NCBI GenBank assembly: GCA_946628745.1
Contig: CAMOXA010000002.1
Location: 1-35,140, forward strand
Direction of reading: 5' to 3'
Origin: an uncultured Verrucomicrobiota bacterium
GTDB lineage: Bacteria > Verrucomicrobiota > Kiritimatiellia > RFP12 > UBA1067
Length of the DNA stretch: 35,140 nucleotides
In this document: in pieces, positions 1,389-29,015 of the stretch
How the letters are laid out: each line of letters opens with the position of its first letter
Position numbering within the stretch: position 1 is the first letter of the stretch
Notes under the pieces: generated by a model
What the model was told of the DNA's origin: nothing
The model's database searches: none
Seen by the model: only the letters and a program-made list of their open reading frames with translations
Position numbers and translations under genes: made by a program

Positions 1389-2114
1389 ATGAATATGAAG
1401 AAAACATTGATTTTCGCGGTTGCGGCCGTGTCCGCTGCCGCAGCGGTCGCGGCGACGCCCCGCAACTCGGCGCGCATGTCCCGCGGCGCGGCCGCCAAAG
1501 CGCCGCCGGCCCAGGCCGAAGAAGAGGGTGCCGTCGGCAAAGTCACTTTGACGCAGCTGCCCAAGACGGGCAGGTCCGCGACTCTCGCCGCGCCTTCTGT
1601 GCCCGGCGGCACAATCATCGGACCGTGCTTCACAAAGCCGAGAAAGTGGATCGTCCTCGAGACGAAGTACGATACCACCGCCAAATGGACCGACCAGCTG
1701 ACCTTCACCTGGCACGTTCTCCTTGAGACCAAGAGCGCGACCGAAAAGGACAAGAACGACCGCGAGAAGCTGCCGCCCTACTCCTATTTCAGCCAGACCG
1801 TCACCTACGTGAACATCCCCCGCGGCGCCCATGCCTCGTCGGTCTGCCTGCAGCCGTCCTATCTCGAACGCTACGGCGAACCCAAGGCCGTCGGCGTCGT
1901 CGTGACCGACGCGAACGGCAAGATGGTCGCCGGCGACAGCGTCAGCGAGATGGGCAAGGAATTCGAACACAAGCAGTGGTGGAACGAGAGCTCCATCATG
2001 GAGAAAAAGGACAGGGGCGAACCGATGATCGAGCGCAGGCAGGGTCTGCTGGAACGCTCCAAGACCATCTGGGCGCTCGTGAACCCGAACGACTACGAGA
2101 TGGTGGCGCAGTGA
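1389..2114 (+). CDS. Secreted hypothetical protein (241 aa), first gene of the pilus-like locus and positional equivalent of Amuc_1102
   Basis: ATG at 1389 is preceded by GGAG. The N-terminal signal peptide is MNMKKTLIFAVAAVSAAAAVAA. Codon usage is consistent with the neighbours. I recognise no catalytic motif. The functional label rests on position only. Confidence 0.6.
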   Translation: MNMKKTLIFAVAAVSAAAAVAATPRNSARMSRGAAAKAPPAQAEEEGAVGKVTLTQLPKTGRSATLAAPSVPGGTIIGPCFTKPRKWIVLETKYDTTAKWTDQLTFTWHVLLETKSATEKDKNDREKLPPYSYFSQTVTYVNIPRGAHASSVCLQPSYLERYGEPKAVGVVVTDANGKMVAGDSVSEMGKEFEHKQWWNESSIMEKKDRGEPMIERRQGLLERSKTIWALVNPNDYEMVAQ

Positions 2115-2169
2115 CGGCCCAGCGGCCGCCGGACGAGACGCATCTGTCAACAAAGCTCCAATACCAGCC

Positions 2170-4044
2170 ATGGCAAAGAAAATACTGACACTGAATATCG
2201 GCGCGTCGAGCGTGGCGCTTGCCGAATACGAGGCCGGCGGAAAATCGCTGAAACTCGTGAACTACGGAACTGCGGCCCTCGCGGCGCCGCTGGATTCCGG
2301 CAACGCCGAGACGATCCTCTCGCCCGCGCTGCTTGAAATCGTGCGCGAGAAGGGCATTCGCCCCGGCAAGGTTTCGGTGTCGCTCTCCGGGCAGATGGTG
2401 TTCCCGCGCTTTGCGGCGATACCGATGGCCGGGGGCGAGGACAAGTTCGACCAGATGGTCCGCGTCGAAATCGAACAGAACATACCGTTCCCGATCGACG
2501 AGATGGTCTGCGACAGGGCGATCCTCGGCGACACGGAGACCGGCGACAAGGCGGTCATGGTCGTGGCGGCGAAGATCGACCAGGTCGAGTCGATAACCAC
2601 GGCGCTTGCGGCGGCGGGCTTCACGCCCGAAATCGTCGATGTCGCGCCGCTTGCCGTCACGAACGTCCTGAAGGCCGTGCGGGGCGACGACGGCGCTTGC
2701 GTGGTCATCCTCGATATCGGCGCTAAGACGACATCGCTCGTCATATCCGAGGGCGAGAAGCTCTACAACCGCTCGATACCCGTAGCCGGCAACACGATCA
2801 CCAAGGAGATCGCGCAGCTTCTGGGCTGCACCCGCGAAGAGGCCGAGCAGATCAAGCGAGAGAACGCGTATGTCTCGATGGGCGGCGTCACCGAAGACGA
2901 AGACGAGACGCTCGACAAGATCTCCAAAGCGTGCCGCGCGGTCTTGACGAGGCTGCACGCGGAGATTTCGAGATCGATCAACTTCTATCGTAGCCAGCAG
3001 GGCGGCGGGATGCCCGTCAAGCTCTATCTGACAGGCGGCAGCTCGCTTCTGCCGCGGCTGGACGCGTTCTTCAGCGACTCGCTGCAGCTCGAGGTCGAAT
3101 ACCTCAATCCGTTCGAGATTATATCGGTCGGCGGCGGGGTCGACGGTTCGGCGCTCGAATCCGACACCGTGTTTCTCGCCGCCACCGCCGGCGTCGCGCT
3201 GCACGTCGCGGGACTCGCCGGAATCGAAATCAACCTTCTGCCGCCTTCGCTCGTCGAAGCGCGCGCCGAAGTCGCCCGCGTGCCGTTTGTCGCCGTCGGC
3301 GCGGCCGGAATCGTCGCGGCGCTCGCCTGCTGGCTCGTGGCCGCAATGGGCGAGAACGGCAGGCTCGACGAGAGCCTCGACGCCGCCACGCGCGAGGCCG
3401 ACAGGCTGGAGAGCATAACCAGGAGCATGGGCGCGGCGAAGGACGCCGAGGCGGCCGCGTGGAACTCGGCCACCAATCTCGCGGCGAGACTCGCCAGGCG
3501 CGGCGATGCGCTCGAACGTTTCGAGACCGTCCGCAAGGCGGTCGGCGCACACCCCGGCATATGGATAGCCAAGTGGGAGGTCCGCACCGAGAAGGAGCAG
3601 GTCAAGACTCCCGAGCAGGAAAACTCCGGACGCCGCGGCAGGCGCGCTTCGCAGGAGTCGGCCGAGATTGAAGTCGAAAGCACTTTCGTGACGATACGCT
3701 GCTGGGACTATATGGCCCGCAAGCTTACCGAAGGCGCAGCGCCCGAGGCGGCCGCGCCGGCGGAGGGGGATGACGCCGAAGCCGAAACCGCCGCGAATCC
3801 GCAGCCCGACGCCGAAGGCGCCGAGGCAGCCGACAACGCGGACGCCGCCGCTGCTGCGCACCGCGCCAGATCCCGCGCCACCGTGCAGAACACGGTCGAC
3901 ATGATCGTGGCCGCCGAGCTCAAGAAGTCCGAAATAATAGTCCCCGGTTCCGTCCGCACCGTCGGCCAGAAAGTCTACGGCAAGGGCGGGTGCCTGCAGG
4001 AGTTCGTTTTGAGAATGCAGTTCAAGGAGCCAGAATACAAATGA
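2170..4044 (+). CDS. PilM-like actin-fold ATPase fused to a PilN-like transmembrane segment, with a long acidic low-complexity C-terminal extension (Amuc_1101-like)
   Basis: The N-terminus is typical PilM: LTLNIGASSV, VVILDIGAKTTSLVI, IPVAGNTITKEIA, LYLTGGSSLLPRL. It is followed by IEINLLPPSLVEAR and the TM helix VPFVAVGAAGIVAALACWLVAAM, which form a PilN-type start. Then comes about 230 aa including an A/E/D-rich tract. The TGA stop overlaps the next ATG (ATGA at 4041-4044). Confidence 0.85.
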   Translation: MAKKILTLNIGASSVALAEYEAGGKSLKLVNYGTAALAAPLDSGNAETILSPALLEIVREKGIRPGKVSVSLSGQMVFPRFAAIPMAGGEDKFDQMVRVEIEQNIPFPIDEMVCDRAILGDTETGDKAVMVVAAKIDQVESITTALAAAGFTPEIVDVAPLAVTNVLKAVRGDDGACVVILDIGAKTTSLVISEGEKLYNRSIPVAGNTITKEIAQLLGCTREEAEQIKRENAYVSMGGVTEDEDETLDKISKACRAVLTRLHAEISRSINFYRSQQGGGMPVKLYLTGGSSLLPRLDAFFSDSLQLEVEYLNPFEIISVGGGVDGSALESDTVFLAATAGVALHVAGLAGIEINLLPPSLVEARAEVARVPFVAVGAAGIVAALACWLVAAMGENGRLDESLDAATREADRLESITRSMGAAKDAEAAAWNSATNLAARLARRGDALERFETVRKAVGAHPGIWIAKWEVRTEKEQVKTPEQENSGRRGRRASQESAEIEVESTFVTIRCWDYMARKLTEGAAPEAAAPAEGDDAEAETAANPQPDAEGAEAADNADAAAAAHRARSRATVQNTVDMIVAAELKKSEIIVPGSVRTVGQKVYGKGGCLQEFVLRMQFKEPEYK

Positions 4045-5027
4045 ACAAAAGCAAGCTCGCAATGGCCGTTATCGGCGGCGTCGCCGGTTTGATGGCGGTA
4101 GGCATAGGCGTCATGGTCTGGATGCAGACCGATGCGTGCGACGAGAAGCGGTTTGAACTCGATTCGCAGTTCTCCCGCCAGTCGGCGAACGCCGCGGCGA
4201 ACCCCGCCGTCGCCGAGGCGCACAGGAAGAACGAAAAGTCCCTCGTCGACTGGGCTAAGGCATCGTACGCGTTCGTCGGCGACAGGAGCGTGCGCGAACT
4301 TGACGCCGACCAGGAGGCGTCCGCGTTCAAGCAGCAGATGATGGACGAATGGCGCGCGCTCACGAAACTGCCCGCCGATTCCGACGTGAAGATCATCAAG
4401 GAGACGTTCTTCTTCGGCGACACCTTCAAGGATTTCATCTCGCAGGGGTCGATGCCGTCCGCCAAGGACAAGCCGAGACTGCAGCGCGAGTGGGACGACC
4501 TCATGCATATGATGGACATCTTCCTGAAGTCCGGTGTGACGGAACTTGTAGGCGTCGAGGTCGTCCGCAAGAAATCCGACGAACCCGCAGCCGACGAAAA
4601 GCGCCAGCGCAGGCGCCAGTCGTCCGGCGCGGCCGCGACAGTCGAGCCCTACCCGAGCTCAGAGGAGACGTACGTCCTCAGATTCACCGCGCGGCCGGAA
4701 GCGCTTGTGAAAACGCTTAACGCCATCGCGAGCGACGAAAAACGCTTCATGTCCGCGTCCATCCGCACGTTCGAACAGGCCGGCGACCCGCTCGTCATGA
4801 TGCTCGGCGGCGGCGACAAGGACAAGGAGTCGCGCCGCGGCAGGGGACGCCGCGGCAGGCGCGCCCAGGAAGCCGAGGCGGCCGAGACGGCTGAAGGCGT
4901 CGAGGCGGAAATCGCGAGGAAGGGCCTCGTGACCAATCCCGAGACTTGCGAGCCCTTTACTGTCACGCTCGAAGTGACGACATACGACTTCGTGCCTGCA
5001 GAAGCAGAAGAGGAGGTGAAGAAATGA
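4041..5027 (+). CDS. Amuc_1100-like (PilO-position) bitopic membrane protein, 328 aa
   Basis: The ATG is coupled to the upstream stop. The N-terminal TM helix is LAMAVIGGVAGLMAVGIGVMVWM. Blocks resemble my recalled Amuc_1100 sequence: YVLRFTARPEALVKTLNAIAS..RFMSASIRTFEQ versus LEIAFQGDRESVLKAMNAITG..YLFTVNSIRIRNE, and C-terminal FTVTLEVTTYDFVP versus VFVQVSLNLVHFNQP. Not verified by alignment software. Confidence 0.7.
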   Translation: MNKSKLAMAVIGGVAGLMAVGIGVMVWMQTDACDEKRFELDSQFSRQSANAAANPAVAEAHRKNEKSLVDWAKASYAFVGDRSVRELDADQEASAFKQQMMDEWRALTKLPADSDVKIIKETFFFGDTFKDFISQGSMPSAKDKPRLQREWDDLMHMMDIFLKSGVTELVGVEVVRKKSDEPAADEKRQRRRQSSGAAATVEPYPSSEETYVLRFTARPEALVKTLNAIASDEKRFMSASIRTFEQAGDPLVMMLGGGDKDKESRRGRGRRGRRAQEAEAAETAEGVEAEIARKGLVTNPETCEPFTVTLEVTTYDFVPAEAEEEVKK

Positions 5028-6112
5028 TTTCCCGTTCGGCTGAAAAGAACATATTCGCGAGACACTGGGAGTGGTTCGTCGCCCTCCTTGGCATTGTCGC
5101 GCTTGTCGCGTCCGTCGCCTTGAATTTCGTCCTAGCTGACGACGGCGAGGAGCTGGCGGGCGGCGTCCGTCCCTCCGGCGGCAACGCGAAGGTCGAGCCC
5201 GTGTCGCTCGAGCGTCTGGAGCAGACGCTGCTCGCTGTCAAGGCACCGCGGCTGCTCGACGACGTTCCCGAAGACAAAGGCAGCTTCCTCGCCTCGGAGT
5301 TCTGCGTCTTTTGCTCGAACGCCGAAGGCGGGCAGAGCTGCGGCAGGCCGATTCCGTTCGGCGTCGAAACCTGCCCCTACGCCGACTGCGGCGTCAGGCA
5401 GAACAAAGAAGAGAAGCCGACGCTTGACACTGACGGTGACGGACTCACGGACGAATACGAGAAGTTGCATGGCCTCAACCCGAGCGATCCGGATGACGCC
5501 GACGGAGACCTCGACGGCGACGGCTTCACGAACATCGAGGAGTTCGCGGCCGGCACGAACCCGTCCAGCAAGGACGACCATCCCGACTATCTCGACTCGT
5601 TCAAGATCGAGCTTCCGCTCAAGCAGACATTCACGTCTCTTTCGCTCACAAGCGCGTACAAGACGCCGAGCGGACTCAAGATCAACTTCAAAGACCCAAC
5701 CCACGCAAATGACTACACGCGCGGCGTGTATTCGGTCTACGCGGGCGACACGATCGGCGAAACTGGCTTTGTCGTCAAGTCCTGTGAACAGAAGACACGC
5801 GTCAAAAAGATGGGCGGCGGCATGACGAGGCGCGAGGAGTACTACGAGGCGGAATTGGAGCGCAAGGCCGACAAAAAGGTCGTGCGGCTCGTACAAGGCG
5901 TCGCGAAGACTCCAGTCGACGAGCAGGCAAAGGTCGTTTGCGAACGCGGCGGACGTGTCGAATTCTTTGTTGTAAACGGACAGGAAATCGACGTAAACGG
6001 GTGGAAATACACTGTTGTCAAGATGGAGGTTGTGCGTCCAAAAGGTGTCCGGCTGACGCTAAAGAGCGGCAAGACGGGCAAAGAACGTACAATCGAAGCA
6101 CTTGAACAGTAA
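5024..6112 (+). CDS. Membrane-anchored protein with a Cys-rich zinc-ribbon-like segment and thrombospondin type-3-like Ca-binding repeats (Amuc_1099 position), 362 aa
   Basis: The ATG at 5024 overlaps the upstream TGA (ATGA). The TM helix is WEWFVALLGIVALVASVALNFVL. The Cys cluster is CVFCSN...SCGRPIPFGVETCPYADCG. The D-rich repeats are DTDGDGLTDEYEKLHGLNPSDPDDADGDLDGDGFTNIEEFAAGTNP. Confidence 0.7.
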   Translation: MISRSAEKNIFARHWEWFVALLGIVALVASVALNFVLADDGEELAGGVRPSGGNAKVEPVSLERLEQTLLAVKAPRLLDDVPEDKGSFLASEFCVFCSNAEGGQSCGRPIPFGVETCPYADCGVRQNKEEKPTLDTDGDGLTDEYEKLHGLNPSDPDDADGDLDGDGFTNIEEFAAGTNPSSKDDHPDYLDSFKIELPLKQTFTSLSLTSAYKTPSGLKINFKDPTHANDYTRGVYSVYAGDTIGETGFVVKSCEQKTRVKKMGGGMTRREEYYEAELERKADKKVVRLVQGVAKTPVDEQAKVVCERGGRVEFFVVNGQEIDVNGWKYTVVKMEVVRPKGVRLTLKSGKTGKERTIEALEQ

Positions 6113-6130
6113 ACCAAAATAGGCTATAAT
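6102..6130 (+). promoter_or_regulatory. Candidate sigma70-type promoter for the secretin gene (TTGAAC-17 nt-TATAAT)
   Basis: TTGAAC at 6102-6107 and a perfect TATAAT at 6125-6130 are separated by 17 nt. They sit in an AT-rich 34-nt spacer that overlaps the stop of the upstream gene. Sequence match only. Confidence 0.4.
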
Positions 6131-6146
6131 AGTTGCCAAAATCTCA

Positions 6147-9100
6147 ATGGAGCATGTGTTTGCCATGACGAATCTAAAGAATCTCGTCGCCATCAGCGCG
6201 ACAGCGGCACTCGTTGCCATCGGTAACAATGTCATCGCGCAGGACGACCTGGACGATCTTTTGAAAGATCTTGCAGAGAAGCCTGCGGCTGAAGAGACCG
6301 TCAAAGCGGAGGAGCCCGCAGATGCGGAAGAGCCTGTCGCCGACGCCGACGAGCCTGCCGTAGAGGAGCCCGTTGCGGAGCCCGATGAGCCCGCAGTGGA
6401 GGAGCCCGTTGCGGAAGAGCCCGTTGCCGACGCCGACGAGCCTGCCGTCGAGGAACCGGTTGCGGAACCCGGCGAGCCTGCTGTGGATGAGCCCGTCTCG
6501 GACGATGATGCGGGCCCTGTTGCCGATGCTGACGAGACTCCTGTCGCCGACGAAGAGCCTGTGGCGGAAGAACCCGCTGTCGAGGAGCCTGCGGTCGTGG
6601 CGGAAGAACCCGCTGTCGAAGAGCCGGCGGTCGTGGCTGAGGAGCCTGTCGAGGAGCCGGCGGTTGCCGCTGAGGAGCCGGCGGTCGTTGCCGAAGAGCC
6701 CCCTGAAAACGATGTAAAACCAGTTGTCGATACGCTGGACGACATGGCCGCCGAAGAGCCCGCCGCTTTGATACCGGACAAGGATGCGGAACTTATCGAG
6801 AACCTGCGCACGACCCGCGAACTCAGCCTCAAGGCTTACGCTCTCCAGGCGCAGCGCGAACATGAAGAGGCCGGCAAATCCATGGCCGGCGAAGAGTACC
6901 TCGAAGCGGCCCGTCACTATGCAAATGCGGTCAAGCTCCTGAACGACAGCCCGAAATACGCCGAACTGCGCAAGGAATGCGAACAGGGCATCGCCGACGC
7001 CCTTTACCGCGCTGCCATGCAAGAGGACGCCATGGGCCGCCGCGATCGCGCCATGAAGCTTATGGAGAAGGCGGTCGCGCGCCGTCATCCGAAGGCACGC
7101 CGCCAGCTTCAGTCCTGGAAGGCCGCCGGCGACCCGGACGCGAACAAGACGGATGTCTCGGAGATCAAGCATTACCGCAACGACGAAGAGTTCAAGAAGC
7201 TCCGTGCGAAGAACAACCAGCATCTGAAGCGCGCCAACCAGCTGCTCGCCGCGCGTCAGCTCGACCAGGCCCAGGACGAGTGCGGTCTCGTGCTGGTTTC
7301 CGACCCGCACAACCAAGAGGCGATACGCCTCATGAATACGATCAATAAAAAGCGCCACACGGTCACAATGCAGGAGCGCGAGTCTGCCCGCAAAGGCATG
7401 ATAGCCGATGTCGACGAGGCGTGGCGCCCGGTGTACGCCCCCGACGTCCGCGAAGTCGAGGATGTAAAGGACACGGTGCGCGGGCCGGTGGACGTCAAAG
7501 ATCCGGAGCGCTCCGCCGAACAGCAGATTGTCAAGCGCATGAAAGAGATGCGTCTGCCGGCGATCTCGTTCAAGCCCCCGGCGACGATCATCGACGCCGT
7601 CGAATTCTTCAGAACGGCTTCAAAGGACTACGACCGTCCTGAGATTCCGCTTGAACAGCGCGGCTTCAATTTCTTCATCAAGCCCCGCGAGACAATCAAA
7701 GCTTCCGCTCCGGCCGGCGAAGAGGAGTCGTCCGGCTTCGGCGCGGAGGACGACGATTCCGCCATCGCCGCCCAGTCGGGCGTGCCGGTGATTCCGATGA
7801 TTACCGCGAGCGACATTTCCTTCTACGAGGCTTTGAAGCTCGTCTGCGAATCCGTCGAGTACAAGTTCAAGGTGCAGGGCCAGATGGTCGTCGTGATGCA
7901 TAAAGACGCGGCGATCGAAGACATGGTCACCCGTAGCTACCCGGTTCTTTCGTCCTTCATGGAGCGAATGGATTCCGCCTCCAGCGATATGAAGGAAATG
8001 CGCACGGGCGGCTTCGGCGGCTCCAGCAGCAACTCGAGGCGCGACGAAGGCGAGGAGAACCAGGAGCGCGACTGGAAGGAGTTCTTCGAGCTTCTGGGCG
8101 TCAAGTGGCCCGAGGGTTCGTCGATTATGTACATCAAGACGATCGGCAAGCTGCGCGTCAAGAACACCTACGAGAACCTGGCCGAACTTGAACAGGCTCT
8201 CACCGAGATGAACGCCGACCCGAAGCTTATCGAGATCGAGGCCCGTTTTGTCGAAGTCTGCCAGGACGACCTGAACTCCCTCGGCTTCGAGTGGATTCTC
8301 AACAGCGACTACTCTCTCAACCCCGGTTCGCACATCTCGCGCCTGTTCAACCTGAAGCACGGCGCGTTCGGCAAGAGTTCGGGTTCGTCGACCACGTCGA
8401 CCGACTATACGTCGACCACCGCTAGCTCGGCCACGACGGGCGGCGTCGTCAACAACGGCGGGACGACGACGACACTCGCGGCCAACAACACGACGAGCAA
8501 GTCTGCCTCGCGCACCGTCTTCGCGCAGTCCAACGGCGCCAGCTGGGTCCGCGCCCCGGGCCGCCCGCGCAATATCGGCATAAGCGGAATGGGCGGCGAC
8601 GCCGACTACACAGGCGGCGCCAACCGCTACCTCTCCACGCTCGACAACCACATTTCGGGCGAGGGGTACTCGACGAATGACAGATTCATGCGTCTCAACG
8701 CGTTTGTCGGCGCGGCCGACCTCTCGCTCATCCTGCACATGCTCTCGCAGCGTAGCGACACGGACTTGCTCTCGGCGCCCAAGGTGCTGACGAGGCCCGG
8801 CGAAGAGGCTGTCATCAAAGTCGTCACCGAGTACATCTACCCGACGGACTACGACGTGCAGTTGCAGTCCAGCTCGTCCGGTTCGAGCGGCAACTACGGC
8901 GGCAGCCAGTCCGCGATTCTCGCGGTCGTCGAGCCGCAGTCGTTCACGATGCGCGAGGTCGGCGTCATTCTCGACGTTACTCCGACGCTCACCGACGACG
9001 GCAACCTTATCGACCTCAAGCTCAACACCCAGGTCGTCGACGAGCCGACCTGGAAGAACTACGGCATGAGAATTCCGTTCACCGGCAACAGCAACAGCGG

Positions 9101-9563
9101 CGACATCAACTTCCCCGAGCTGCCGGCTATTGCGGCCGCGCGCCCGATCGGCGACGACATCATAGACACGGTCTACCATGCGTGGGCCACGGCGATCGAG
9201 AAGATAGCCGATGCTGTCGGCGGCACGTCGAACAACATAACCTACTACGACGCCCCGATGGAACAGCCGTTCTTCCACGTTCGCTCGATCGATTCGAACG
9301 TCTCGGTGTATCCTGGCGCGACGATTGTCATGGGCGGCCTGATCACCGAGCAGCGCAAGGCGATGGACGACAAGATACCGTTCCTCGGCGACATACCGTT
9401 TGTCGGCAGGCTCTTCCGCAGCCACTCCGAGCAGACGTCCAAGCGCAACCTGCTCATTTTCGTGACGACGCGTCTCGTCGACGTGAGAGGCCGCGAAGTG
9501 CCGATGGGTTCTTTTGACGTCAAGGACACCGACGTCAAGGCAGCGCCCTCTGACGGCGAATGA
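6147..9563 (+). CDS. Giant secretin (GspD/PilQ superfamily, Amuc_1098-like outer-membrane channel), 1138 aa
   Basis: Signal-like N-terminus NLKNLVAISATAALVAIGNNVIAQ, with an alternative ATG at 6165. Acidic E/P/A/V repeats are followed by TPR-like helical segments. The secretin core includes LIEIEARFVEVCQDDLNSLGFEW, LLSAPKVLTRPGEEAVIKV and the C-terminal signature GGLITE...DKIPFLGDIPFVGRLFRSHSEQTSKRNLLIFVTTRLV. Confidence 0.9.
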   Translation: MEHVFAMTNLKNLVAISATAALVAIGNNVIAQDDLDDLLKDLAEKPAAEETVKAEEPADAEEPVADADEPAVEEPVAEPDEPAVEEPVAEEPVADADEPAVEEPVAEPGEPAVDEPVSDDDAGPVADADETPVADEEPVAEEPAVEEPAVVAEEPAVEEPAVVAEEPVEEPAVAAEEPAVVAEEPPENDVKPVVDTLDDMAAEEPAALIPDKDAELIENLRTTRELSLKAYALQAQREHEEAGKSMAGEEYLEAARHYANAVKLLNDSPKYAELRKECEQGIADALYRAAMQEDAMGRRDRAMKLMEKAVARRHPKARRQLQSWKAAGDPDANKTDVSEIKHYRNDEEFKKLRAKNNQHLKRANQLLAARQLDQAQDECGLVLVSDPHNQEAIRLMNTINKKRHTVTMQERESARKGMIADVDEAWRPVYAPDVREVEDVKDTVRGPVDVKDPERSAEQQIVKRMKEMRLPAISFKPPATIIDAVEFFRTASKDYDRPEIPLEQRGFNFFIKPRETIKASAPAGEEESSGFGAEDDDSAIAAQSGVPVIPMITASDISFYEALKLVCESVEYKFKVQGQMVVVMHKDAAIEDMVTRSYPVLSSFMERMDSASSDMKEMRTGGFGGSSSNSRRDEGEENQERDWKEFFELLGVKWPEGSSIMYIKTIGKLRVKNTYENLAELEQALTEMNADPKLIEIEARFVEVCQDDLNSLGFEWILNSDYSLNPGSHISRLFNLKHGAFGKSSGSSTTSTDYTSTTASSATTGGVVNNGGTTTTLAANNTTSKSASRTVFAQSNGASWVRAPGRPRNIGISGMGGDADYTGGANRYLSTLDNHISGEGYSTNDRFMRLNAFVGAADLSLILHMLSQRSDTDLLSAPKVLTRPGEEAVIKVVTEYIYPTDYDVQLQSSSSGSSGNYGGSQSAILAVVEPQSFTMREVGVILDVTPTLTDDGNLIDLKLNTQVVDEPTWKNYGMRIPFTGNSNSGDINFPELPAIAAARPIGDDIIDTVYHAWATAIEKIADAVGGTSNNITYYDAPMEQPFFHVRSIDSNVSVYPGATIVMGGLITEQRKAMDDKIPFLGDIPFVGRLFRSHSEQTSKRNLLIFVTTRLVDVRGREVPMGSFDVKDTDVKAAPSDGE
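6276..6707 (+). repeat. Coding tandem-repeat tract for an acidic E/P/A/V-rich region of the secretin N-terminus
   Basis: An imperfect 87-bp duplication occupies 6339-6425 and 6426-~6497 (GCCGACGCCGACGAGCCTGCCGT...). A 36-bp duplication occupies 6561-6596 and 6597-6632 with 2 mismatches, followed by degenerate further copies. It encodes (EEPVA/EEPAV)n over aa 44-187. Confidence 0.85.
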
Positions 9564-9567
9564 CGCG

Positions 9568-10122
9568 ATGGTGAAAATCGCAATGACTGGAGGGATTGCC
9601 TGCGGCAAATCCCTCCTTTCGTCTTATCTCAGGGACCTGGGCGTCGAAACGCTCGACGCGGACGATGTGGTGCACGCGCTCGTCCCCGCCGAAGAGCGCA
9701 GGCGTCTGGCCAAAGTGGTCTTCGCCGACGCCAGCGCGCGGCGCGCGCTCGAGGCGCGTCTGCACCCGCTGGTGCGCGAGAGGATTCGCGCCTGGTTCGC
9801 AGAAGGAGGCTCCGCGCCGAAGGTTGCGATAATTCCTCTTCTTTTCGAGGTGCATTGGGAAGCGGATTATGATATAATATCATGCGTCGTCTCATCTCGG
9901 GAGAAGCAGATCGAGAGAATGACGGCACTGCGGGGCTACACCCGCGAGGAGGCCGAAGCCCGGCTCGCCGCCCAGATGGACGTGTCGGAGAAGGCCGCAA
10001 AATCCCAGTACGTGATCCGCAACGACGGGTCGGCCGCAGAGCTGAGGGCCGAGGCCGAAAAGTTCGTCTCGTGGCTCGCGCAGCAACAGCATGGCGCGCT
10101 GTTCCCGAAGCGCCGGATATAA
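9568..10122 (+). CDS. coaE: Dephospho-CoA kinase
   Basis: [15 protein letters not shown] carries the P-loop, and [10 protein letters not shown] is a typical CoaE block. Length is 184 aa. The longer track ORF from 9514 overlaps the secretin 3' end, so I prefer the ATG at 9568. Confidence 0.85.
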
Positions 10123-10136
10123 GGAGAGATACAAAG

Positions 10137-11687
10137 ATGGCAGATGAATTCGACGTTTTCGCGCAGGCTGAAAAACCTGCGCCGCAGCAGAGCGCCCAAC
10201 CGCAGCAGGGTGCACAGCCACCGCCGGCGCAGGGCGGTGTGAAGCGCCAATTCCACAAGGGCAGGTCGCCCCACAGAGGGCCGAAGACGAACACGTCCCC
10301 GATCAGGGGTTCAAACGGATCGGAGTCCGTCAACCCTCTTCTCAACGCTCCTCTCCCCACCGGGCAGGCGGCGACCGAGACTGCCGCACCGGTGAACCCG
10401 AACCGCGATCCGTCGCTTGAAGAATACCGTCTCGCCGACATCCAGATATGGCCGGCCCAGCAGATCGTCGACAGGATGATGCCGGGGGCCGATCCGGAGG
10501 AGCTCGGCACGTACCGCAAGCACGAGCTCATCTTCGCGGCAATCCGCGCGTACTTGGCGAAGGGTGGTGCGGTGCTCGCCTCGGGATGTCTCGAAATCGT
10601 CCGCGAGGGGCACGGTTTTCTGCGTTCGGCCAAGAACAACTTTCTCGCATGTCCCGAAGACGTCTTCGTCACGCAACAGCAGATACGCCGGCACGCTCTC
10701 CGAACCGGCGACATCATTGAAGGGCCGATTCGCGATCCGCGCGACCGCGACCGCTTTTTCTGCCTCGGCAACGTCAATACCGTAAACGGCAAGGAGCCTT
10801 CGGTCGCGGCTCGCGTCGTCCATTTCGAGAACCTGACGCCGACCTTCCCCACGCGCCGCATCGTGCTTGAGACAGTCGAAAACGAATATTCGATGCGCGT
10901 CATCGACCTTTTCACGCCGATCGGCTTCGGACAGCGCGGGCTGATCATCGCGCCGCCGCGCGTGGGCAAGACCGTGCTTCTGCAGAAGATGGCGAATGCC
11001 ATAACAGCCAACTACCCCGACGCGATGCTCATCGTCCTGCTTATAGACGAGCGTCCCGAGGAAGTGACGGACATGCAGCGCAACACAAAGGCGATGGTTC
11101 TTTCGTCCACGTTCGACGAGGAGCCGCAGCACCATGTCAATGTCGCCGAGATGGTGATAGAGATGTCAAAGCGCCAGGTCGAAAACGGGCGAGACGTCAT
11201 CATCCTGCTCGACTCCATAACCCGCATGGCGCGCGCATACAACACCGTCCAGCCGCATTCCGGCAAGATACTCACGGGTGGTGTCGACGCGCTCGCGCTG
11301 CACCGTCCGAAGCGCTTCTTCGGCGCGGCGCGGAACATAGAGGGCGGCGGCTCGCTGACTATCATCGCGACAGGGCTCGTTGATACCGGCTCGAGGATGG
11401 ACGAGGTGATATTCGAAGAGTTCAAAGGAACCGGCAACATGGAGATCGTGCTGGACCGTGGTCTCGCCGACAAGAGGATTTTCCCGGCGATTGACGTCGA
11501 GAAGTCCGGCACGCGCAAGGAGGATCTGCTGCTGGAACCCCTCGAGATGGAAAAGACATGGGGCATGCGCCGCATCCTCGCGGACGCCGGCCCGGAGTCC
11601 GCCATGAAGTCCGTTCTGAATTCTCTCAAGAAGACGAAGTCGAACCCGGAGTTTCTGCTCGCGCTCGATCTCAAGAATCTGCAATAA
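10137..11687 (+). CDS. rho: Transcription termination factor Rho with a ~100-aa Q/P-rich N-terminal extension
   Basis: AAGGAGAG lies 8 nt upstream of the ATG at 10137. Rho motifs are [33 protein letters not shown] (Walker A), [13 protein letters not shown] and [36 protein letters not shown]. Confidence 0.93.
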
Positions 11688-11699
11688 GGAGGAGCGATC

Positions 11700-14600
11700 A
11701 TGAAGTTTTCAGGCGCGCAACGCGCGGCAATTGCTTTAGCGGCGTTCGCCCTCGCCGGACCGGCCGGGGCGACGAGCGTGTATTCCGGCGATTTTGTCTA
11801 TCTCGAAGGGATTGTCTCCAGGCTGGCCGACGGCGCCGCCGTGACGCCTTCGGGCTACCTGAACAACTTCGGCCCTGGAACCGGCGCTGTCGAGTACAGC
11901 GCAGTCCCGCCAAAAGGATACTCTCTCTCGCAATGGGTCGTCGTCGATGTCAACGACCAGTACCGCACCCTCGGCGAGGCGAAGCATTACGCGACGTTCG
12001 CCGATGATGCCGCCGTGCTGTCCTGGAGCGACGAATACGGGGAAGACGGGGACGATCCCTGGCCGCTGGCGGTGGAAATCGCGCCTTGCTTCACATGGCT
12101 AAAGTACGACCTCTATTTCGACCCGAACGTACCGAACTCCGAAGGGCCCGACGGAGCGCTCACACAGACGGGGCTCGTCTACACGAACGACGTCGAGATA
12201 GGCGCCGCCCCGGTCGAAAGCCCCTGGCTGCGCCCGTATTATACGCTCGAGGGTCTCGCGACGGCGCCCGACGCCGAAGAGGCCATGTTCGGTTTCGGGA
12301 CGGTCGTCGAGTCCGCCGGCGCGAGTTTCGGCGCCACGGCGGATGGCGCCGTCACGCTCTATGGCGTGTGGCGGCCGCGGGTCGTGACGATCGAGCTTGA
12401 CGCGGACGGCGGCGAAGTTTCGTCAAACGCCGTATATGTCGTCGGCGCGGAGGCGTGCCCGGCCCTGCCTGTCCCGGTCAGAAAGCACTATGTCTTCGGC
12501 GGATGGTTCGTAGATGGCGCGAGAATCGCCGCCGGCAGCAAAATCGAAGAGGAAGACGGCGTGACGCTGCAGGCCGTTGCGGGATGGGTCCCCGAGACAA
12601 ACAGACTCGCTTTCGACAAGCGCGGCGGCGAAGGCGGCACGGATTTTGCGGAACCTTCCTACGGCGAGGACATGCCGGAAATCGAACCGCCGTCGCGCGA
12701 AGGCTTCGTCTTTGAGGGCTATTTCACTTTCTCTTGCGGGGGCGAGCAGTACTACGACGCCGCAGGGTGCGGCGTCCGCGAGTGGGATAGAGGCGCCGAC
12801 GGTACGCTGTATGCGCAGTGGAAGCCCGTTGTGCAGGCGGCGCGCCAATCGCAAATGGCCCGTTTCGCCAACGTGCGCATGCTCCTCGATACGCCGCCCG
12901 GCGAAGACCTCGGCGAAATCTCTGCGGCGACCGGTGCGGATTTCGCCATTGGTTCCGGCGGGCTTCTGTCAGCCGCCTGGACCGCAGACTCCGCCGTTTT
13001 CGCTGAAGGCGACAGCTCGCTCAAGATCTGCGGCGTACCCGATCTGCAGTATTTCTCGATGACCGGCACGGTCAGCGGGGCCGGCACGATTGTTTTCAAA
13101 TGCCGCGCCGACATCGCGATGGTCGCGTCTGGCGAGAGCGATTCGTCTGGCCTCAATATCGGTATCGGCCGAAAGCAGATGATGACGCTTCGTCCGCAGA
13201 CGCTGGAGCATATCGACATCGCCGAATCGAACAAGTGGATCAAGTGCAGCCGCCGCATCGAGGCCACCGGCGATACGCTCCTGTGGTGGGAGGCTTGGTC
13301 GCTTGATGTCTTTGGCGAAGGTTCGACGTTGTGGTTGGATGACATACGGTGGATTCCGCTCGGCCCCGCAGTGCCTTCGGCTGTTACCGTCTCTGATTTC
13401 AGCGGAGCATACGACGGCGCGTCGCATGGCCCCGTCGTGGAAACGGTAGATTCCGAAATGGCTCCCGCGGTGCGCTTCGCCGCGACAGAGGAGGGGCCGT
13501 TCGAACTGGAAGAGTTCGCTTTCTCGGACGTGGTTTCCACGACAGTATGGTATGTTGCAACGGCCGACTACTGCACACCTGTCACGAACAGCGTGACGAT
13601 TCAGATCTCGCAGGCCGAAAACAAGTGGAGTATCGAGCCTTTCATAGCGGATTGGAAAGCCGGCGAGACGCCGGTCGTCACGAACGGTGTCGCCAAGTTC
13701 GGCGGCACTGCCTCGGTCGCCTATTACACCGCGGCGGATTCGAAACTCTCCGGCCGCCCGTCGGAGGCCGGGGATTACCGTGCAGAGTTTTTCGTAGCCG
13801 GAACGGATAATTGGACCGCCCTCACCAAATCGATATCGTTCAGCATAGCCGAAGCAGACCCCGAACCAGGTACAAACCCGGAGCCCGGTACCGATCCCGA
13901 GCCCGGCACCAACCCCGAACCAGGTACAAACCCGGAGCCAGGCACCGATCCCGAGCCCGGTACCGACCCTGGATCAGATACGGAACAGTTGGCAGAGATG
14001 GCACTGTATGTTGTAGATTGCGAGGGTACATATGATAGGGACGGCCATACGATCGAGATAATTCCCGTGTCGGCGATTCCCGGCGTAGTGTTCAAGTATG
14101 CCGCGACGGAGGACGGCGAGTTCGGCACCGCACCGATTATGTTCACCAACGCGATGGATTCCGCAGCGACCGTATGGTATGCCGTCGAGGCCGCGGGCTA
14201 CACGAGCGTGACGAACAGTGCGACGGTCATGATACACGAAGCGCCCGAAGGCTGGCTCGAAGACCTTCCCGCTCCGGATACGGACCCTGACGAAGAACCA
14301 GGCGAAGACCCGGGTGCGGAGCCGGAACAGGGCGGCGGCAACGAGACGGTCGACCCCGAAACGGATTCGCCGGCATCCGGCGTAATCGATTCCACCTTCG
14401 CGAAGAGCCAGAAGCATCGCGGCGCCATGTACGCGAGCGATGGTTCTCTCGTCGGCGTCGCCGAGATTTCGTTCGGCAAGGCGAGCCGCAACGGTGCCGT
14501 CAGGGTGACCGGTGGCGTCACGCTCATGAACGGCAAGAAGGTCTCGGCGAAATCCTCCACTCTCGCTGCCGACGGCAGCGGCGGAATGCAGGGCGTGCTG

Positions 14601-15137
14601 GTGTTCAAAGCGCCTTTCGGCGCAATGGATCTCGCGGTCGCGGCGGACGGCGGTTTTCGTCTGGACAGCGCCGGCTTCAAGATGGTCGCGGCGGCGGTAG
14701 GCGGTCAGCCCGGCGGCGGCGCGAGAGGGGTCTTCCGGCTCGGCGGCGATTTTGATCTAGAGCCCGCCGGTGAACTGCAGACGTGGCTGCTGCCGGCGGA
14801 AGTCGGGTTCGACATCGTCAAGGGTAAATGGAAGTTCGCCAGGAATGCGTCCGTGAAAATCTCTAAGGACCCTGCAACAGGCGAATACATGCTCGCGGTG
14901 GATACGGGCAGGAACGGCGACAAGACGAACGTGTCGGCCGTGAAACTGACCTACACCGCCAAGACCGGCAAGTTCAAAGGATCCTTCAAGGTGTATGACG
15001 TCGTTTCGACTGGCAGCCGTCCTCGGCTGAAGAAGTATACGGTGAATGTCTCCGGCTTCGTGCTGGACGGCAAGGGCACGGGCCAGGCGACGTGCAAACG
15101 TCCGGCCGGCGGACCATGGAGCGTGACGGTAGAGTAG
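11700..15137 (+). CDS. Large secreted or surface repeat protein (1145 aa) with Listeria-Bacteroides-type repeats, a duplicated module and a PEPGT[ND] linker
   Basis: AAGGAGGAG precedes the ATG at 11700. The signal peptide is [18 protein letters not shown]. Repeat signatures are YYTLEGLAT...[18 protein letters not shown]...AGW and GFVFEGYF...LYAQWKP. Two related modules carry ..YDG..H...(F/Y)AATE(E/D)G.F....TVWY(V/A)...VTNS.T. The C-terminal beta-rich module is [19 protein letters not shown]...[16 protein letters not shown]. Confidence 0.8.
13860..13967 (+). repeat. Six in-frame 18-bp tandem repeats encoding PEPGT(N/D)
   Basis: The sequence reads CCCGAACCAGGTACAAAC CCGGAGCCCGGTACCGAT CCCGAGCCCGGCACCAAC CCCGAACCAGGTACAAAC CCGGAGCCAGGCACCGAT CCCGAGCCCGGTACCGAC. 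The tract lies between the two duplicated modules. Confidence 0.9.
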
Positions 15138-25235: not shown

Positions 25236-28200
25236 ATGGCAAACGAAATGACGAAATTGACGGCGCTGGTCGCCGGTATCGCCTTGGCAACAACCGCGTT
25301 CGCGGCGTTTGACGACATAACCGTCGAGAAATATCCCGACGCCGACGCGGTGCTCGTCGACGGTCTGGAGGAAATAACGTACAATCCTGACGGCACCTAC
25401 GTGTCGACCGACACGAGCGTCGTCAAGATTCTCACCGAGAAGGGCCGCCGCGAAGAAAGCGAGATAGAGCTCGGCTACAGCGCGCGCTACGGCAAGTCGG
25501 AGGTTCTTCGCGTCAGCGTGACCGGCGCGGACGGGCAGGAGCGCGAAATCGACGTGTCGAAGACGACGAAGGAATCGACCGACAATTCGTCCGAGGCCGA
25601 GAATATCTACGACCCCATGCATAAAAAGGTCGTTTGCACCATCCCCGGCCTCAAGGTCGGCGACGTCATACGCTACACGACGCGCCGCAGCGTCTTCAAG
25701 TCCCGCATCAAGGACCAGTTCGCGGATATCGCGGTCATGGAATGGAAAAGCCCGATCGTCCGCCAGACGGTGCGCGTCACGGCGCCGAAAGAGCGTCCGC
25801 TGCGCCGCATAGCCGTGCGCAATCCGCTGGGCAATGTGGACTACAAGACCGAGGAGCTGCCCGGCGGCAAGACGCTGCACACCTGGGTCGCGACGAACAC
25901 TCCCCAGGTGTTCGAAGAACCCGATACGCCGCCGCTCTACACGCTCGTGCAGAATGTCCGGTTCTCGACGGCGGCCGACTGGGAGGAGATTTCGCGCTGG
26001 TACTGGGACCTCAGCCAGGAGCATCTCGCGAAGGCCAACGCCGGCATAACCAACAAAGTCGAAGAGATTGCAAAGAGCGGCGGACCTGCCCTGAACGCGA
26101 TCTACAAATGGGTCGCGCAGGAGATACGGTACATGGGGCTGACCATGGAAGACACGTCGCCCGGCTACGCGCCGCACGATGTGGACATCACCTTCGAGAA
26201 CCGCTACGGCGTCTGCCGCGACAAGGCGGCGCTTCTCGTCGCGATGCTTCGCATAGCCGGCTACGAGGCCTTCCCGGTTCTCATACACGCCGGCGCGAAG
26301 ATGGACCCCGAAGTCCCCATGCCTTACTTCAACCACGCGATCGCGGCGGTCCGTGCGCCCGGCGACCCGGCCGCGAACAAGGACGGCTTCATACTGATGG
26401 ATCCGACGAACGAATCGAGCGCCGACCTCTGCCCCGCCTATCTCGGCGACAAGTCCTATCTCGTGGCCACTCCAGAAGGCGAGCCGCTGCACACCTCGCC
26501 GGTCTATCCGGCGGACGCGAACGCATTGAAGGCCGACAGCAAGGCGACGCTGGAGCGCGACGGCTCGATGGTCGTCGAAAGCGTGCTGGATTTCAGCGGA
26601 CTTAACGACAATGCGTACCGCCAGGCTCTTCTGAGGCGCAAGCCCGAAGAGCGCCGCCGCCTCTTCGAGCGCGTGGTCTCGTCCGCCGCGGCCGGCGCCG
26701 AGCTGCTCTCGTTCGAGATGTGGCCCAAGGACCTGCGCGAGACAGAGAGCCTGCTCAAGATCAAATTGATGTACCGCGTCAACGAGTCGGTGCTGCGCGG
26801 CGAGAGCCGCGACGAACTCACGGTGCCGTTCCTGACGCGCGTGCTCGGCACCGTCAACTGGGCGCTTTCGGGCAATACGTCGCTCGAGAAAAGGCGCTTC
26901 CCGCTCGTTCTCGACTCGACGGCCAAGACGGTCGAGACCGTGAGCGTCGACCTGGGCGGAGCGCTGGGCGGCAAGGCCCGCCTGCCCGAGCCTGTGGCCT
27001 TCAGCGGACCGTACGAATACAGCCGCGCCTACGCCGTCTCCGACGGCACGCTTCTCGCCCGGCGCACTCTCGCCGTGAACGCCGTGGAGTTCTCGCCTGC
27101 GGAATACGCCGCGCTGCGCGAGGACATAAAGCGGGTCGAGGCGGCGGACCGCCCGCGGCCCGTCTTCACGAAGAATCCGGACGCCGAGGCGAACGTCCAC
27201 TACCGCCTTGTCGAATCCGCCTACCATCTGTCCAGCCCGTATTCATGGGTCGCCACGAACAAAGTCGAGATGGAGGTTCTCACATACGACGGGAAGAAGA
27301 GTTCGGCGGAACTGAAGTTCGCCTTCAATCCCGAATGGAAGAACGTCGAGCTTGTGTCGGCGGTCGTTTCGAACAAGAACGGCCAGGTGTCCGCCGCGGG
27401 CGAGCGCGAGATGTCGCTCTTCGATTGCGGATGGGCGGCCGCCGCGCCGCGCTATCCCGCGTCGAAGCAGCTTGTCGTGAACCTGCCTTCGGTCGAAATC
27501 GGCAGCGTGATAACCTACACGACCGTCACAACGGTGAACGGATCCCCCGCGCCGTTCTACGCGACATGGATGTTCGACGTTCGCGAACCCACCGATGTCC
27601 TGTCTGTCGGCTACCGCGACTGGATGGGCGGCAACTTCGACGAAACAGTGCGCAACCCGAAAATGCTGCCTGCCGAGCCCATGCAGCCCGCCGGCGAACT
27701 GTGGCGCAGGACGCGCACCGTCTCGCACGGCAATTTCGCCGAGGCCGCCGAACGCCTCAAGGCGGCGACCGCTGTGTCCCCTGTCCGCAAGGGCGAGGCA
27801 ATCGCCGACGCGGCGAAGTGCGACACCCCGGCCGGCAAAATCGCCGCGGTCCGGAACTGGATGTCGAAGCACGTGAGAATCGCCGGACCGTCGCTTTATG
27901 AAGTGCCGCTCGCCGCCCAGCAGACCGACCCCGGGGCGGTGCTCGCCGAGCGCTACGCCTCGCGCCTCGACTACATACGTACGATGTGCGCTCTCATGAA
28001 GGGCGCAGGACTCGAGGCCGATGTCGTCTTCGCCGCGAACGACGCTCTCGACAGCGAGGCCATGCGCCGCCGCCACGTCGCCGAGCGCCAGACCTCGCGC
28101 TTCGCGATACCGCTGTGCCGCGTGACTGTCAAGCGCGGCTGGTGGCTCTGGTCCGAGACGGAAACATTCTTTGTCGGCACCGAGAACGAGTACACGCCGG

Positions 28201-28961
28201 TCGGCGCTTCGCCGTACGACGGCTCGTACTGCCTCGTGCCCGAAAGCGGAACAATCGAGACGATTCGCGAGGGGGCTTTCAAGTCCGCGGTCGTGAACAG
28301 TTACTCTATCGGCGTTCGCGAAAACGGCGCGATTGACGTGGACTACGCGAGCGAACTGTACGGACCCGGCGTCGGGTCGTTCCGCAAGCAGTATATAGAG
28401 ATGCTCTCCGAAGACCGCAGCCGCCACTTCCAGGAGCTGCTGGGCGGGCTCTCCCAGGCGGCGAGCGCGACTCGCGATCTGGTGACGGACACCGAAGGCT
28501 ACCCCGCCAGAATGTCGTTCAGCGCGTTCGTGCCGGACTATGCGACGGTGTCGGGCGACACGATAACGATCGTCCTGCCCGAAATCGGCTCGCGGCTCTT
28601 CCAGCTGACGGGGACTGTCCGCGAGAGCCCCCTCGGCGTGGGCGCGAAATCCGGCGACGGCACGACTGTGATAGAGACCGTGTTCCCGGCAGGTTACACC
28701 GAAGTCGAGCACCTGCCGAACGAGTTCGTCTTTTCGGAGACGTTCGCGACTGCTGATTCCCGCACCGGGGCGAAGCTGCGCCAGCTCAAAGTCTCCACCC
28801 GGCTGGACGAGAAGGGCCGGCTCGTGGTGACGGTCGTCGAACGCTCGCCCGAACATGCGGCGGGAATGCTGCCGGCGGACCGGTTCGCGTTGCTTAAGGA
28901 TTGGTCGCGTCTCGCGTCGAGCCGCGCCAACCGCACGATAGTCGTCCGCAAGCCGCAGTAG
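25236..28961 (+). CDS. Secreted DUF3857 / transglutaminase-like cysteine-protease-fold protein, internally duplicated (1241 aa)
   Basis: The signal peptide is LTALVAGIALATTAFAA. The transglutaminase core has YGVCRDKAALLVAMLRIAGYEA (Cys327, nt 26214-26216), FNHAIAAV (His) and ILMDPTN (Asp). A second DUF3857-like beta region starts near nt 27200, followed by a degenerate core, RLDYIRTMCALMKGAGLEA. Confidence 0.8.
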   Translation: MANEMTKLTALVAGIALATTAFAAFDDITVEKYPDADAVLVDGLEEITYNPDGTYVSTDTSVVKILTEKGRREESEIELGYSARYGKSEVLRVSVTGADGQEREIDVSKTTKESTDNSSEAENIYDPMHKKVVCTIPGLKVGDVIRYTTRRSVFKSRIKDQFADIAVMEWKSPIVRQTVRVTAPKERPLRRIAVRNPLGNVDYKTEELPGGKTLHTWVATNTPQVFEEPDTPPLYTLVQNVRFSTAADWEEISRWYWDLSQEHLAKANAGITNKVEEIAKSGGPALNAIYKWVAQEIRYMGLTMEDTSPGYAPHDVDITFENRYGVCRDKAALLVAMLRIAGYEAFPVLIHAGAKMDPEVPMPYFNHAIAAVRAPGDPAANKDGFILMDPTNESSADLCPAYLGDKSYLVATPEGEPLHTSPVYPADANALKADSKATLERDGSMVVESVLDFSGLNDNAYRQALLRRKPEERRRLFERVVSSAAAGAELLSFEMWPKDLRETESLLKIKLMYRVNESVLRGESRDELTVPFLTRVLGTVNWALSGNTSLEKRRFPLVLDSTAKTVETVSVDLGGALGGKARLPEPVAFSGPYEYSRAYAVSDGTLLARRTLAVNAVEFSPAEYAALREDIKRVEAADRPRPVFTKNPDAEANVHYRLVESAYHLSSPYSWVATNKVEMEVLTYDGKKSSAELKFAFNPEWKNVELVSAVVSNKNGQVSAAGEREMSLFDCGWAAAAPRYPASKQLVVNLPSVEIGSVITYTTVTTVNGSPAPFYATWMFDVREPTDVLSVGYRDWMGGNFDETVRNPKMLPAEPMQPAGELWRRTRTVSHGNFAEAAERLKAATAVSPVRKGEAIADAAKCDTPAGKIAAVRNWMSKHVRIAGPSLYEVPLAAQQTDPGAVLAERYASRLDYIRTMCALMKGAGLEADVVFAANDALDSEAMRRRHVAERQTSRFAIPLCRVTVKRGWWLWSETETFFVGTENEYTPVGASPYDGSYCLVPESGTIETIREGAFKSAVVNSYSIGVRENGAIDVDYASELYGPGVGSFRKQYIEMLSEDRSRHFQELLGGLSQAASATRDLVTDTEGYPARMSFSAFVPDYATVSGDTITIVLPEIGSRLFQLTGTVRESPLGVGAKSGDGTTVIETVFPAGYTEVEHLPNEFVFSETFATADSRTGAKLRQLKVSTRLDEKGRLVVTVVERSPEHAAGMLPADRFALLKDWSRLASSRANRTIVVRKPQ

Positions 28962-28998
28962 CTCCGTCGAATTATCGAATCACGGCGTCAGGAAAATA

Positions 28999-29007: not shown

Positions 29008-29015
29008 ATAACTGG

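Follow-up and report, generated by a model that had tools for sequence, protein, structure and literature searches.

A Kiritimatiellia locus collinear with the Akkermansia MUL2 cluster encodes a PilM–PilN-like fusion protein and a secretin

Five co-directional genes match the Amuc_1102–Amuc_1098 families in order

The DNA analysed here, referred to as the window, is a complete contig of 35,140 bp (GenBank CAMOXA010000002.1) from an uncultured Kiritimatiellia bacterium, and it carries a compact array of five co-directional genes (genes 1–5, Table 1) resembling the Amuc_1102–Amuc_1098 cluster of Akkermansia muciniphila, known as the MUL2 locus. The original prediction, made from the letters of this DNA, had described five genes joined by short gaps or by ATGA stop/start overlaps, and direct checking of the coordinates, the ATG starts and the stops confirmed this arrangement: the intergenic distances are 55, −4, −4 and 34 nt, the two negative values corresponding to the ATGA overlaps at 4041 and 5024. 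The domain architectures assigned to the five products also held in Pfam scans, in the analysis of transmembrane (TM) and signal segments and on direct reading.

Table 1. Genes and features of the five-gene locus and the genes downstream of it (positions in the window)
Feature	Position	Strand	Description
Gene 1	1389..2114	+	241 aa; Amuc_1102-family (MUL2A-like) exported protein
Gene 2	2170..4044	+	624 aa; PilM–PilN-like fusion, Amuc_1101 family
Gene 3	4041..5027	+	328 aa; Amuc_1100-family, PilO-like bitopic protein
Gene 4	5024..6112	+	362 aa; Amuc_1099-family protein in the PilP position
Promoter-like site	6102..6130	+	TTGAAC-17-TATAAT, 10/12 to the sigma-70 consensus; the rules in these bacteria may differ
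Gene 5	6147..9563	+	1138 aa; Amuc_1098-family secretin
coaE (dephospho-CoA kinase)	9568..10122	+	TIGR00152 102 bits (cutoff 65.6); 4 nt past the secretin stop
rho	10137..11687	+	Pfam Rho_RNA_bind and ATP-synt_ab; 14 nt past coaE

Profile searches connected every product to a curated family. With the NCBIfam models NF042424, NF045709, NF038287, NF042425 and NF042912, genes 1–5 matched Amuc_1102_rel, Amuc_1101_fam, Amuc_1100_fam, Amuc_1099_fam and Amuc_1098_fam in that order, with E-values of 5e-8, 2e-113, 7e-10, 5e-12 and 5e-127, so that the proposed resemblance of genes 1, 3 and 4 to their Akkermansia counterparts is borne out together with that of the two large genes, in which PilM_2 and Secretin domains were found. 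Precomputed Pfam Amuc_1102 (PF28178) and Amuc_1100 (PF28028) domains are also present on proteins identical to the window products.

The collinearity with Akkermansia was verified on an A. muciniphila contig (L006) that was fetched by way of the full Amuc_1100 sequence (P0155), itself recovered from a part rebuilt off a PDB alignment. On this contig the order is Amuc_1102 (238 aa), the PilM-type Amuc_1101 (612), Amuc_1100 (317), Amuc_1099 (337), the secretin Amuc_1098 (906), which bears tetratricopeptide repeats (TPR), and a CoaE–Rho fusion. BLASTP aligned gene 1 with Amuc_1102 (33% over 139 aa), gene 2 with Amuc_1101 (32% over 374 aa, E 2e-58), gene 4 with Amuc_1099 in the TSP3 region only (38% over 50 aa) and gene 5 with Amuc_1098 (25% over 904 aa, E 5e-71), while the pairwise comparison of gene 3 with Amuc_1100 was not significant. 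The two clusters share the same five families, order and strand, with coaE and rho downstream in both, and they have in common the PilM-plus-TM fusion, the TPR-like region before the secretin domain, the Amuc_1100 fold and the Sec-type signal of gene 1. They differ in phylum (Kiritimatiellia for the window, Verrucomicrobiota for Akkermansia), and their identity is low (25–33%, and at the profile level only for Amuc_1100). Further, a four-Cys module is found in the Amuc_1099-like protein of Kiritimatiellia but not in that of Akkermansia; the window secretin is longer and includes a region of acidic repeats; coaE and rho stand as two genes in the window but are fused in Akkermansia; and the upstream genes are ackA-pta-kpsF and a giant Laminin_G_3 gene in Kiritimatiellia-type loci, whereas Akkermansia has peptidase/lgt genes. 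From these sequence comparisons we identify the locus as the Kiritimatiellia counterpart of the Amuc_1102–1098 (MUL2) cluster, which has already been described, and not as a new system.

Published work on the Akkermansia cluster bears directly on how the locus is read. Ottman et al. (2017, PMC5332112) reported that the Amuc_1098–1102 products are abundant in the envelope and may build pili-like structures, and a 2023 review designates the cluster as one of type IV pili with PilQ (PMC10688800). In the naming of the MUL2 locus, Amuc_1102 is MUL2A, Amuc_1101 (PilM) is MUL2B, Amuc_1100 is the 'PAS' protein and Amuc_1098 is PilQ. The locus has been surveyed across Verrucomicrobiota (PMC13174399; bioRxiv 10.64898/2025.12.30.696933), and the synteny of the secretion channel protein, dephospho-CoA kinase and rho is drawn in PMC13174399. 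The original prediction had called the function of the assembly unresolved, a statement superseded by two reports, according to which A. muciniphila requires MUL2 to acquire mucin, a genetic phenotype reported for that species only (PMC13174399; bioRxiv 10.64898/2025.12.30.696933). Its view of the locus as a poorly understood system of the Planctomycetes–Verrucomicrobia–Chlamydiae (PVC) group survives in part: the question of fibre and motor is real and is recognised for Akkermansia too, but the cluster is published and NCBI already names Kiritimatiellia homologues. Kiritimatiellota are not covered in PMC5332112, PMC10688800, PMC13174399 or bioRxiv 10.64898/2025.12.30.696933, and literature searches on type IV pili in Kiritimatiellota yielded nothing informative. 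The modest novelty here is that the cluster extends to a second PVC phylum, in which its synteny is strongly conserved.

Domain anatomy of the five products

Gene 2 gave the clearest assignment. Its PilM_2 domain (aa 8–345), of the cytoplasmic actin-like type, scored 135.5 bits in Pfam (cutoff 27), TIGR01175 pilM gave 168.5 bits (cutoff 133), and the product matched the PilM structures of Myxococcus xanthus, Thermus thermophilus and Pseudomonas aeruginosa in the PDB at E 1e-31 to 1e-22; judged by these scores, the predicted cytoplasmic domain is a bona fide PilM. After the PilM domain come the PilN motif INLLP (aa 354–358, nt 3229–3243), a single TM helix (aa 371–394, nt 3280–3351) and a periplasmic tail. 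All 11 homologues of gene 2 that were aligned, Akkermansia among them, keep the I/L-N/D-L-x-P motif and the TM helix.

The product of gene 5 is a secretin, with a Pfam Secretin domain of 113.6 bits (cutoff 27.5) that carries an S/T/G-rich insertion. Ahead of this domain lie a signal peptide, acidic repeats and a helical TPR-like region that it has in common with Amuc_1098. Among solved structures it matched GspD and PilQ secretins at E 1e-16 to 1e-9, with GspD best, and it stayed below the cutoffs of both subtype models (112 against 284 bits for PilQ TIGR02515, 128 against 351 for GspD TIGR02517). The acidic E/P/A/V-rich tandem repeats at the N-terminus (nt 6276–6746) are subject to in-frame repeat indels, the protein measuring 1138 aa in the window but 1194 aa in a near-identical strain (locus L002). 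The sigma-70-like match of Table 1 lies 17 nt ahead of the start codon of the secretin and is a possible internal promoter for this gene.

The product of gene 3 has one N-terminal TM helix, long helices and a ferredoxin-like alpha-beta-beta domain. A profile of 23 gene-3 homologues reached the Amuc_1100 crystal structures 6KNY and 6LAD at E 7e-7, and homologues of gene 3 carry the precomputed Pfam Amuc_1100 domain. Consistently, an AlphaFold2 model of gene 3 (mean predicted local distance difference test score, pLDDT, 74.8) retrieved 6KNY, 6LAD and 6LAF in Foldseek at E 6e-8 to 4e-6, with template modelling scores on the target of 0.64–0.73, and the Amuc_1100 fold of helices plus two alpha-beta-beta motifs is matched by the model. 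The next Foldseek matches were the P. aeruginosa PilO structure 2RJZ (prob 0.98, E 7e-3) and then the PilO of the M. xanthus machine model. The family is large, since an exhaustive search with an Amuc_1100-like profile returned, at E <= 1e-3, the representatives of 1,869 clusters formed at 50% identity, of which 289 were at E <= 1e-30. Earlier work calls Amuc_1100 PilO/PilN-like (PMC13174399; bioRxiv 10.64898/2025.12.30.696933), and the present matches reinforce the PilO-like reading of Amuc_1100-family proteins, a reading not easily squared with accounts of them as pilus proteins of the outer membrane.

Gene 4 encodes one N-terminal TM helix, a four-Cys module (nt 5312–5389), two TSP3 calcium-binding repeats (nt 5420–5563; Pfam TSP3_bac 38 bits) and a C-terminal all-beta domain. 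The four cysteines (C97, C106, C117 and C122) and the TSP3 aspartates are invariant in 29 Kiritimatiellia-type homologues, while Akkermansia Amuc_1099 contains no cysteine at all; the quartet could form a zinc-ribbon-like or disulfide module, predicted to lie on the periplasmic side. The AlphaFold2 model of gene 4 (pLDDT 74.7) had no significant whole-chain Foldseek match, and its sole high-probability matches were PilP 2LC4 (prob 0.97, E 0.1) and the PilP of 3JC8 (prob 0.96), at E 0.1–0.3. Homologues of gene 4 number 678, some of which NCBI names 'Amuc_1099 family pilus-like system protein [Kiritimatiellia bacterium]'.

Gene 1 encodes a hydrophobic segment (aa 3–25) forming a Sec-type signal-like N-terminus, with neither a lipobox cysteine nor a prepilin motif. 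A gene-1 profile built from Kiritimatiellia alone scored 9.7 bits against Amuc_1102 and did not reach PDB 7DSZ, which has the Amuc_1102 fold. A match of the gene-1 profile to 7DSZ obtained with the Akkermansia sequence included was rejected as circular, and the repeat without that sequence failed; single-sequence searches of the PDB with genes 1, 3 and 4 found nothing relevant. The original prediction had reported no pilin gene, a statement that requires revision in that gene 1's own family, Amuc_1102, is discussed as a pilin-like subunit (PMC13174399; bioRxiv 10.64898/2025.12.30.696933), MUL2A being described as similar to an archaeal type IV pilin (PMC13174399). Two soil-metagenome loci, L018 (6050–10460) and L028 (6237–13465, which also carries Amuc_1098), have no Amuc_1102-like gene upstream of 1101-1100-1099, its place being occupied by a permease-like gene. 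Amuc_1102 is therefore not an obligate linked part of the cluster.

Conservation of the cluster and its neighbourhood

To place the locus among its relatives, the family hidden Markov models were run over the window and 88 loci. A metagenome scan with an Amuc_1099 alignment relied on TSP3 motifs, and 66 of its 80 loci proved to be unrelated TSP3 proteins. A genome-contig scan with a single protein returned one locus. Seventeen loci besides the window carry the cluster wholly or partly, and the order 1101-1100-1099-1098 is kept in every one of them. Three more loci found through Pfam annotation and fetched later (L090, L091 and L092) each contain the complete set of five genes, with coaE and rho downstream in one. 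A chance arrangement of open reading frames is ruled out by order and families that are conserved down to 27% identity.

The genes on either side are conserved as well. In the window a kpsF-like SIS/CBS gene stops 14 nt before the start of gene 1, and the five genes are packed tightly into a housekeeping series, pta-kpsF-[five genes]-coaE-rho. Downstream, coaE follows the secretin in six of the eight surveyed loci that have DNA there, together with rho where the contig is long enough. The pair is seen in L006 (14890–16911, the fusion), L001, L007 (where the contig ends and shows coaE only), L009 and L012, as well as in the later-fetched L090. The window Rho is 46% identical to the Akkermansia CoaE–Rho fusion and at least 90% identical to the Rho of a Kiritimatiellia metagenome-assembled genome. 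Two starts are conceivable for its reading frame, one at 9882 (601 aa, with an overlap into coaE) and one at 10137 (516 aa), and the 516-aa form is backed by the called genes of related contigs and by an exact-sequence look-up. We take coaE and rho as syntenic markers and not as functional parts, and their linkage is conserved across two phyla. Upstream, a giant protein of 4000–6000 aa with Laminin_G_3 domains (some with TSP3), ackA, pta and the kpsF-like gene precede the cluster in every Kiritimatiellia-type locus that reaches far enough, namely L002 (1–7334), L001, L004, L009, L090, L091 and L092, even where the identity of the Amuc_1100-like protein is only 27–29%.

The same DNA was searched for the missing components of a pilus. 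The original prediction had seen no prepilin motif and no PilB/PilT/PilC-like sequence in the 35 kb, and this was upheld: reading the window in all six frames showed neither a prepilin motif nor a GspE/PilB-type Walker A, and domain scans of its other genes found no type IV pilus (T4P) or type II secretion system (T2SS) ATPase or platform domain. Nor was any prepilin motif, GspE-type Walker A or T2SSE/T2SSF Pfam domain found in 22 related loci within the available DNA, up to 10 kb on each side. A complete pilin, ATPase and platform set adjacent to the cluster, which would have made it a split but otherwise ordinary T4P operon, was seen in none of these 22 loci, and an ordinary complete type IV pilus operon is ruled out. 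In type IVa pilus systems (Pseudomonas, Neisseria, Thermus), pilMNOPQ operons are usually unlinked from the pilin, ATPase and platform genes. Akkermansia itself has other pili proteins that are encoded elsewhere and needed for colonisation (Amuc_1523-24, 1583, 0394 and 0745; bioRxiv 10.64898/2025.12.30.696933). Since unlinked operons are usual and other Akkermansia pili genes lie elsewhere, absence from 35 kb does not prove that a fibre or motor is missing. The claim that no pilin, ATPase or platform gene lies nearby is correct as an observation, extending to the 22 loci, and does not carry over to the genome as a whole.

Likeness to type IVa pilus machines and the proposed assembly

Among known systems, the PilM-N-O-P-Q machine of type IVa pili (P. 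aeruginosa, M. xanthus, T. thermophilus) resembles the locus in gene order and logic, in PilM, in the INLLP motif followed by a TM helix, in the PilO-like fold of the gene-3 model and in the secretin; the beta domain of gene 4 is weakly PilP-like and encoded at the pilP position, and the operon is likewise unlinked from pilin and ATPase genes. The differences are also considerable. PilM and PilN are fused in the window, and the PilN, PilO and PilP sequence models are unmatched. The protein in the PilP position is TM-anchored and carries TSP3 and Cys modules, whereas type IVa PilP is a lipoprotein. The window has an extra Sec-exported Amuc_1102 gene, its secretin has a TPR-like region and no AMIN domains, and no cognate pilin or motor was found in the window or in related loci.

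On this comparison we favour, with somewhat better than even confidence, a MUL2-orthologous type IVa-pilus-like scaffold plus secretin that serves the attachment to and acquisition of complex glycans and whose pilins, motor and platform are encoded elsewhere. The earlier proposal of an envelope-spanning alignment complex plus secretin for this locus is supported. In such an assembly, the cytoplasmic actin-like PilM domain would be fused in cis to its PilN partner, with INLLP as the PilM-binding motif, one TM helix and a periplasmic tail, and the tail would pair in the periplasm with the PilO-like Amuc_1100-family protein. The Amuc_1099-family protein, membrane-anchored and in the PilP position, would bridge to the N-terminal domains of the Amuc_1098-family secretin, the presumed outer-membrane channel, and the Sec-exported Amuc_1102-family protein may be an accessory or fibre-like component of the periplasm or surface. 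The PilN, PilO and PilP roles are drawn from position, topology, one motif and fold resemblance, and they mean 'works like' rather than proven membership of those families. By homology with MUL2, the machine would most likely help the cell to attach to complex glycans of host or algal origin and to acquire them, and by analogy with other pilMNOPQ operons its probable unlinked partners are prepilin-type pilins, a PilB/PilT-type ATPase and a PilC platform.

Several observations weigh against this scaffold. The NCBIfam scores of genes 1–5 are all below the equivalog cutoffs (32.7/55, 380.6/650, 38.8/180, 45.9/50 and 425.1/750 bits), so the same function is not guaranteed and the products are clear homologues rather than certified functional equivalents. 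The Pfam PilN, PilO and PilP models gave no match to fragments of the C-terminal part of gene 2, gene 3 or gene 4, and hhalign of the PilN-like tail against the PilO-like family aligned the TM helix and coil only, with a probability of 12%. The PilP resemblance in the gene-4 model is weak, covering 74 columns at E 0.1, and gene 4 lacks a lipobox and has a TM anchor where a lipoprotein would be expected. Amuc_1102-family proteins have a Sec signal and not a class III prepilin signal, and so cannot be assembled in the manner of canonical pilins. In publications on Akkermansia, Amuc_1100 is located in the outer membrane or on pili, which misfits a PilO-like role in the inner membrane. Finally, no pilin, ATPase or platform gene was seen in the window or the related loci.

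Alternative readings

Two of these points, the Sec-type signal of gene 1 and the lack of any pilin, ATPase or platform gene in the 35-kb window or, out to about 10 kb, in the 22 related loci, count in favour of a self-contained PVC-specific conduit working with neither prepilins nor a PilB-type motor. In such a conduit the stack of the PilMN fusion, the Amuc_1100- and Amuc_1099-family proteins and the secretin would gate a pore importing partly degraded glycans into an enlarged periplasm, and an Amuc_1102 oligomer would act as fibre, plug or substrate-binding element. The position of the cluster inside a tight housekeeping array (pta-kpsF-...-coaE-rho) and not among pilus genes points the same way, as does the published association of MUL2 with mucin or fucoidan accumulating inside cells, and not with motility (PMC13174399). 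However, known systems have PilM coupled to the PilC/PilB motor, it is normal for pilMNOPQ operons to be unlinked, Akkermansia encodes other pili and pseudopili proteins, some of them needed for colonisation (bioRxiv 10.64898/2025.12.30.696933), and the soil loci L018 and L028 keep the cluster with no adjacent Amuc_1102 gene. We consider the conduit unlikely. A broader version, in which the MUL2-type module would be an ancient PVC-spanning machine devoid of prepilins and a PilB-type ATPase, a secretin-based gate for the import or attachment of large glycans instead of a pilus scaffold, with the coaE–rho linkage reflecting constitutive expression at housekeeping level, is a speculation to which we give similarly little credence.

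A type II secretion-like exporter of enzymes, or of the giant upstream Laminin_G_3 surface protein, was also weighed. The succession of a fused cytoplasmic/TM/periplasmic protein, a bitopic partner, a TM-anchored secretin linker and a secretin resembles GspL-GspM-GspC-GspD and may follow the same logic; the best matches of the secretin among solved structures are GspD, TIGR02517 scores slightly above TIGR02515, one family member weakly matches the GspM model, and the 4000–6000-aa Laminin_G_3 protein is conserved upstream. Set against these, the cytoplasmic domain is PilM above curated cutoffs and not GspL, the INLLP PilN motif is present, the GspD score is far below its cutoff (128 against 351), and Akkermansia does not have the giant upstream gene. 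No GspE, GspF, GspG, GspH, GspI, GspJ or GspK gene lies nearby and no pseudopilin motif occurs in the window. Taken together, these features make an exporter of this type quite improbable. A DNA-uptake (competence) pilus machine of the PilQ/HofQ type is very improbable indeed: the C-terminus of the secretin matches HofQ and competence PilQ models and PilMNOPQ-type sets serve transformation in Thermus and Neisseria (textbook knowledge), but the HofQ scores are far below cutoff, window domain scans found no ComEA, ComEC or DprA gene nearby, and the sole genetic phenotype reported for the homologous cluster is mucin acquisition (PMC13174399).

The scaffold-plus-secretin reading remains the one we prefer. 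The MUL2 cluster, source of the therapeutically studied Amuc_1100, is not confined to Akkermansia or the Verrucomicrobiales, being kept gene for gene with coaE and rho in gut and rumen Kiritimatiellia. This conservation across phyla supports the view that the cluster is, for PVC glycan degraders, a core machine of the envelope. It also brings into focus what fibre and what motor, if any, the machine uses, a question that comparative genomics across the two phyla could answer.

Other features of the window

The remainder of the window consists of housekeeping genes (pta, uvrA, recA, tig, clpP, clpX, panD and others) and a large Flg_new protein. The latter, of 1145 aa (11700–15137), follows rho and combines a Flg_new (Listeria-Bacteroides repeat) domain with acidic repeats, and a similar large gene stands after rho in L002 and L090. 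A second secretin of 561 aa (29016–30701), which the original prediction did not mention, matches GspD, PilQ and MshL models below their cutoffs and has no T2SS or T4P partner genes nearby. It belongs to a region (25236–31718) in which a 1241-aa DUF3857/transglutaminase protein is followed by this secretin and then by a DUF481 outer-membrane protein (30702–31718), and the pair of second secretin and DUF481 protein recurs, together with the genes downstream, on contig L089.

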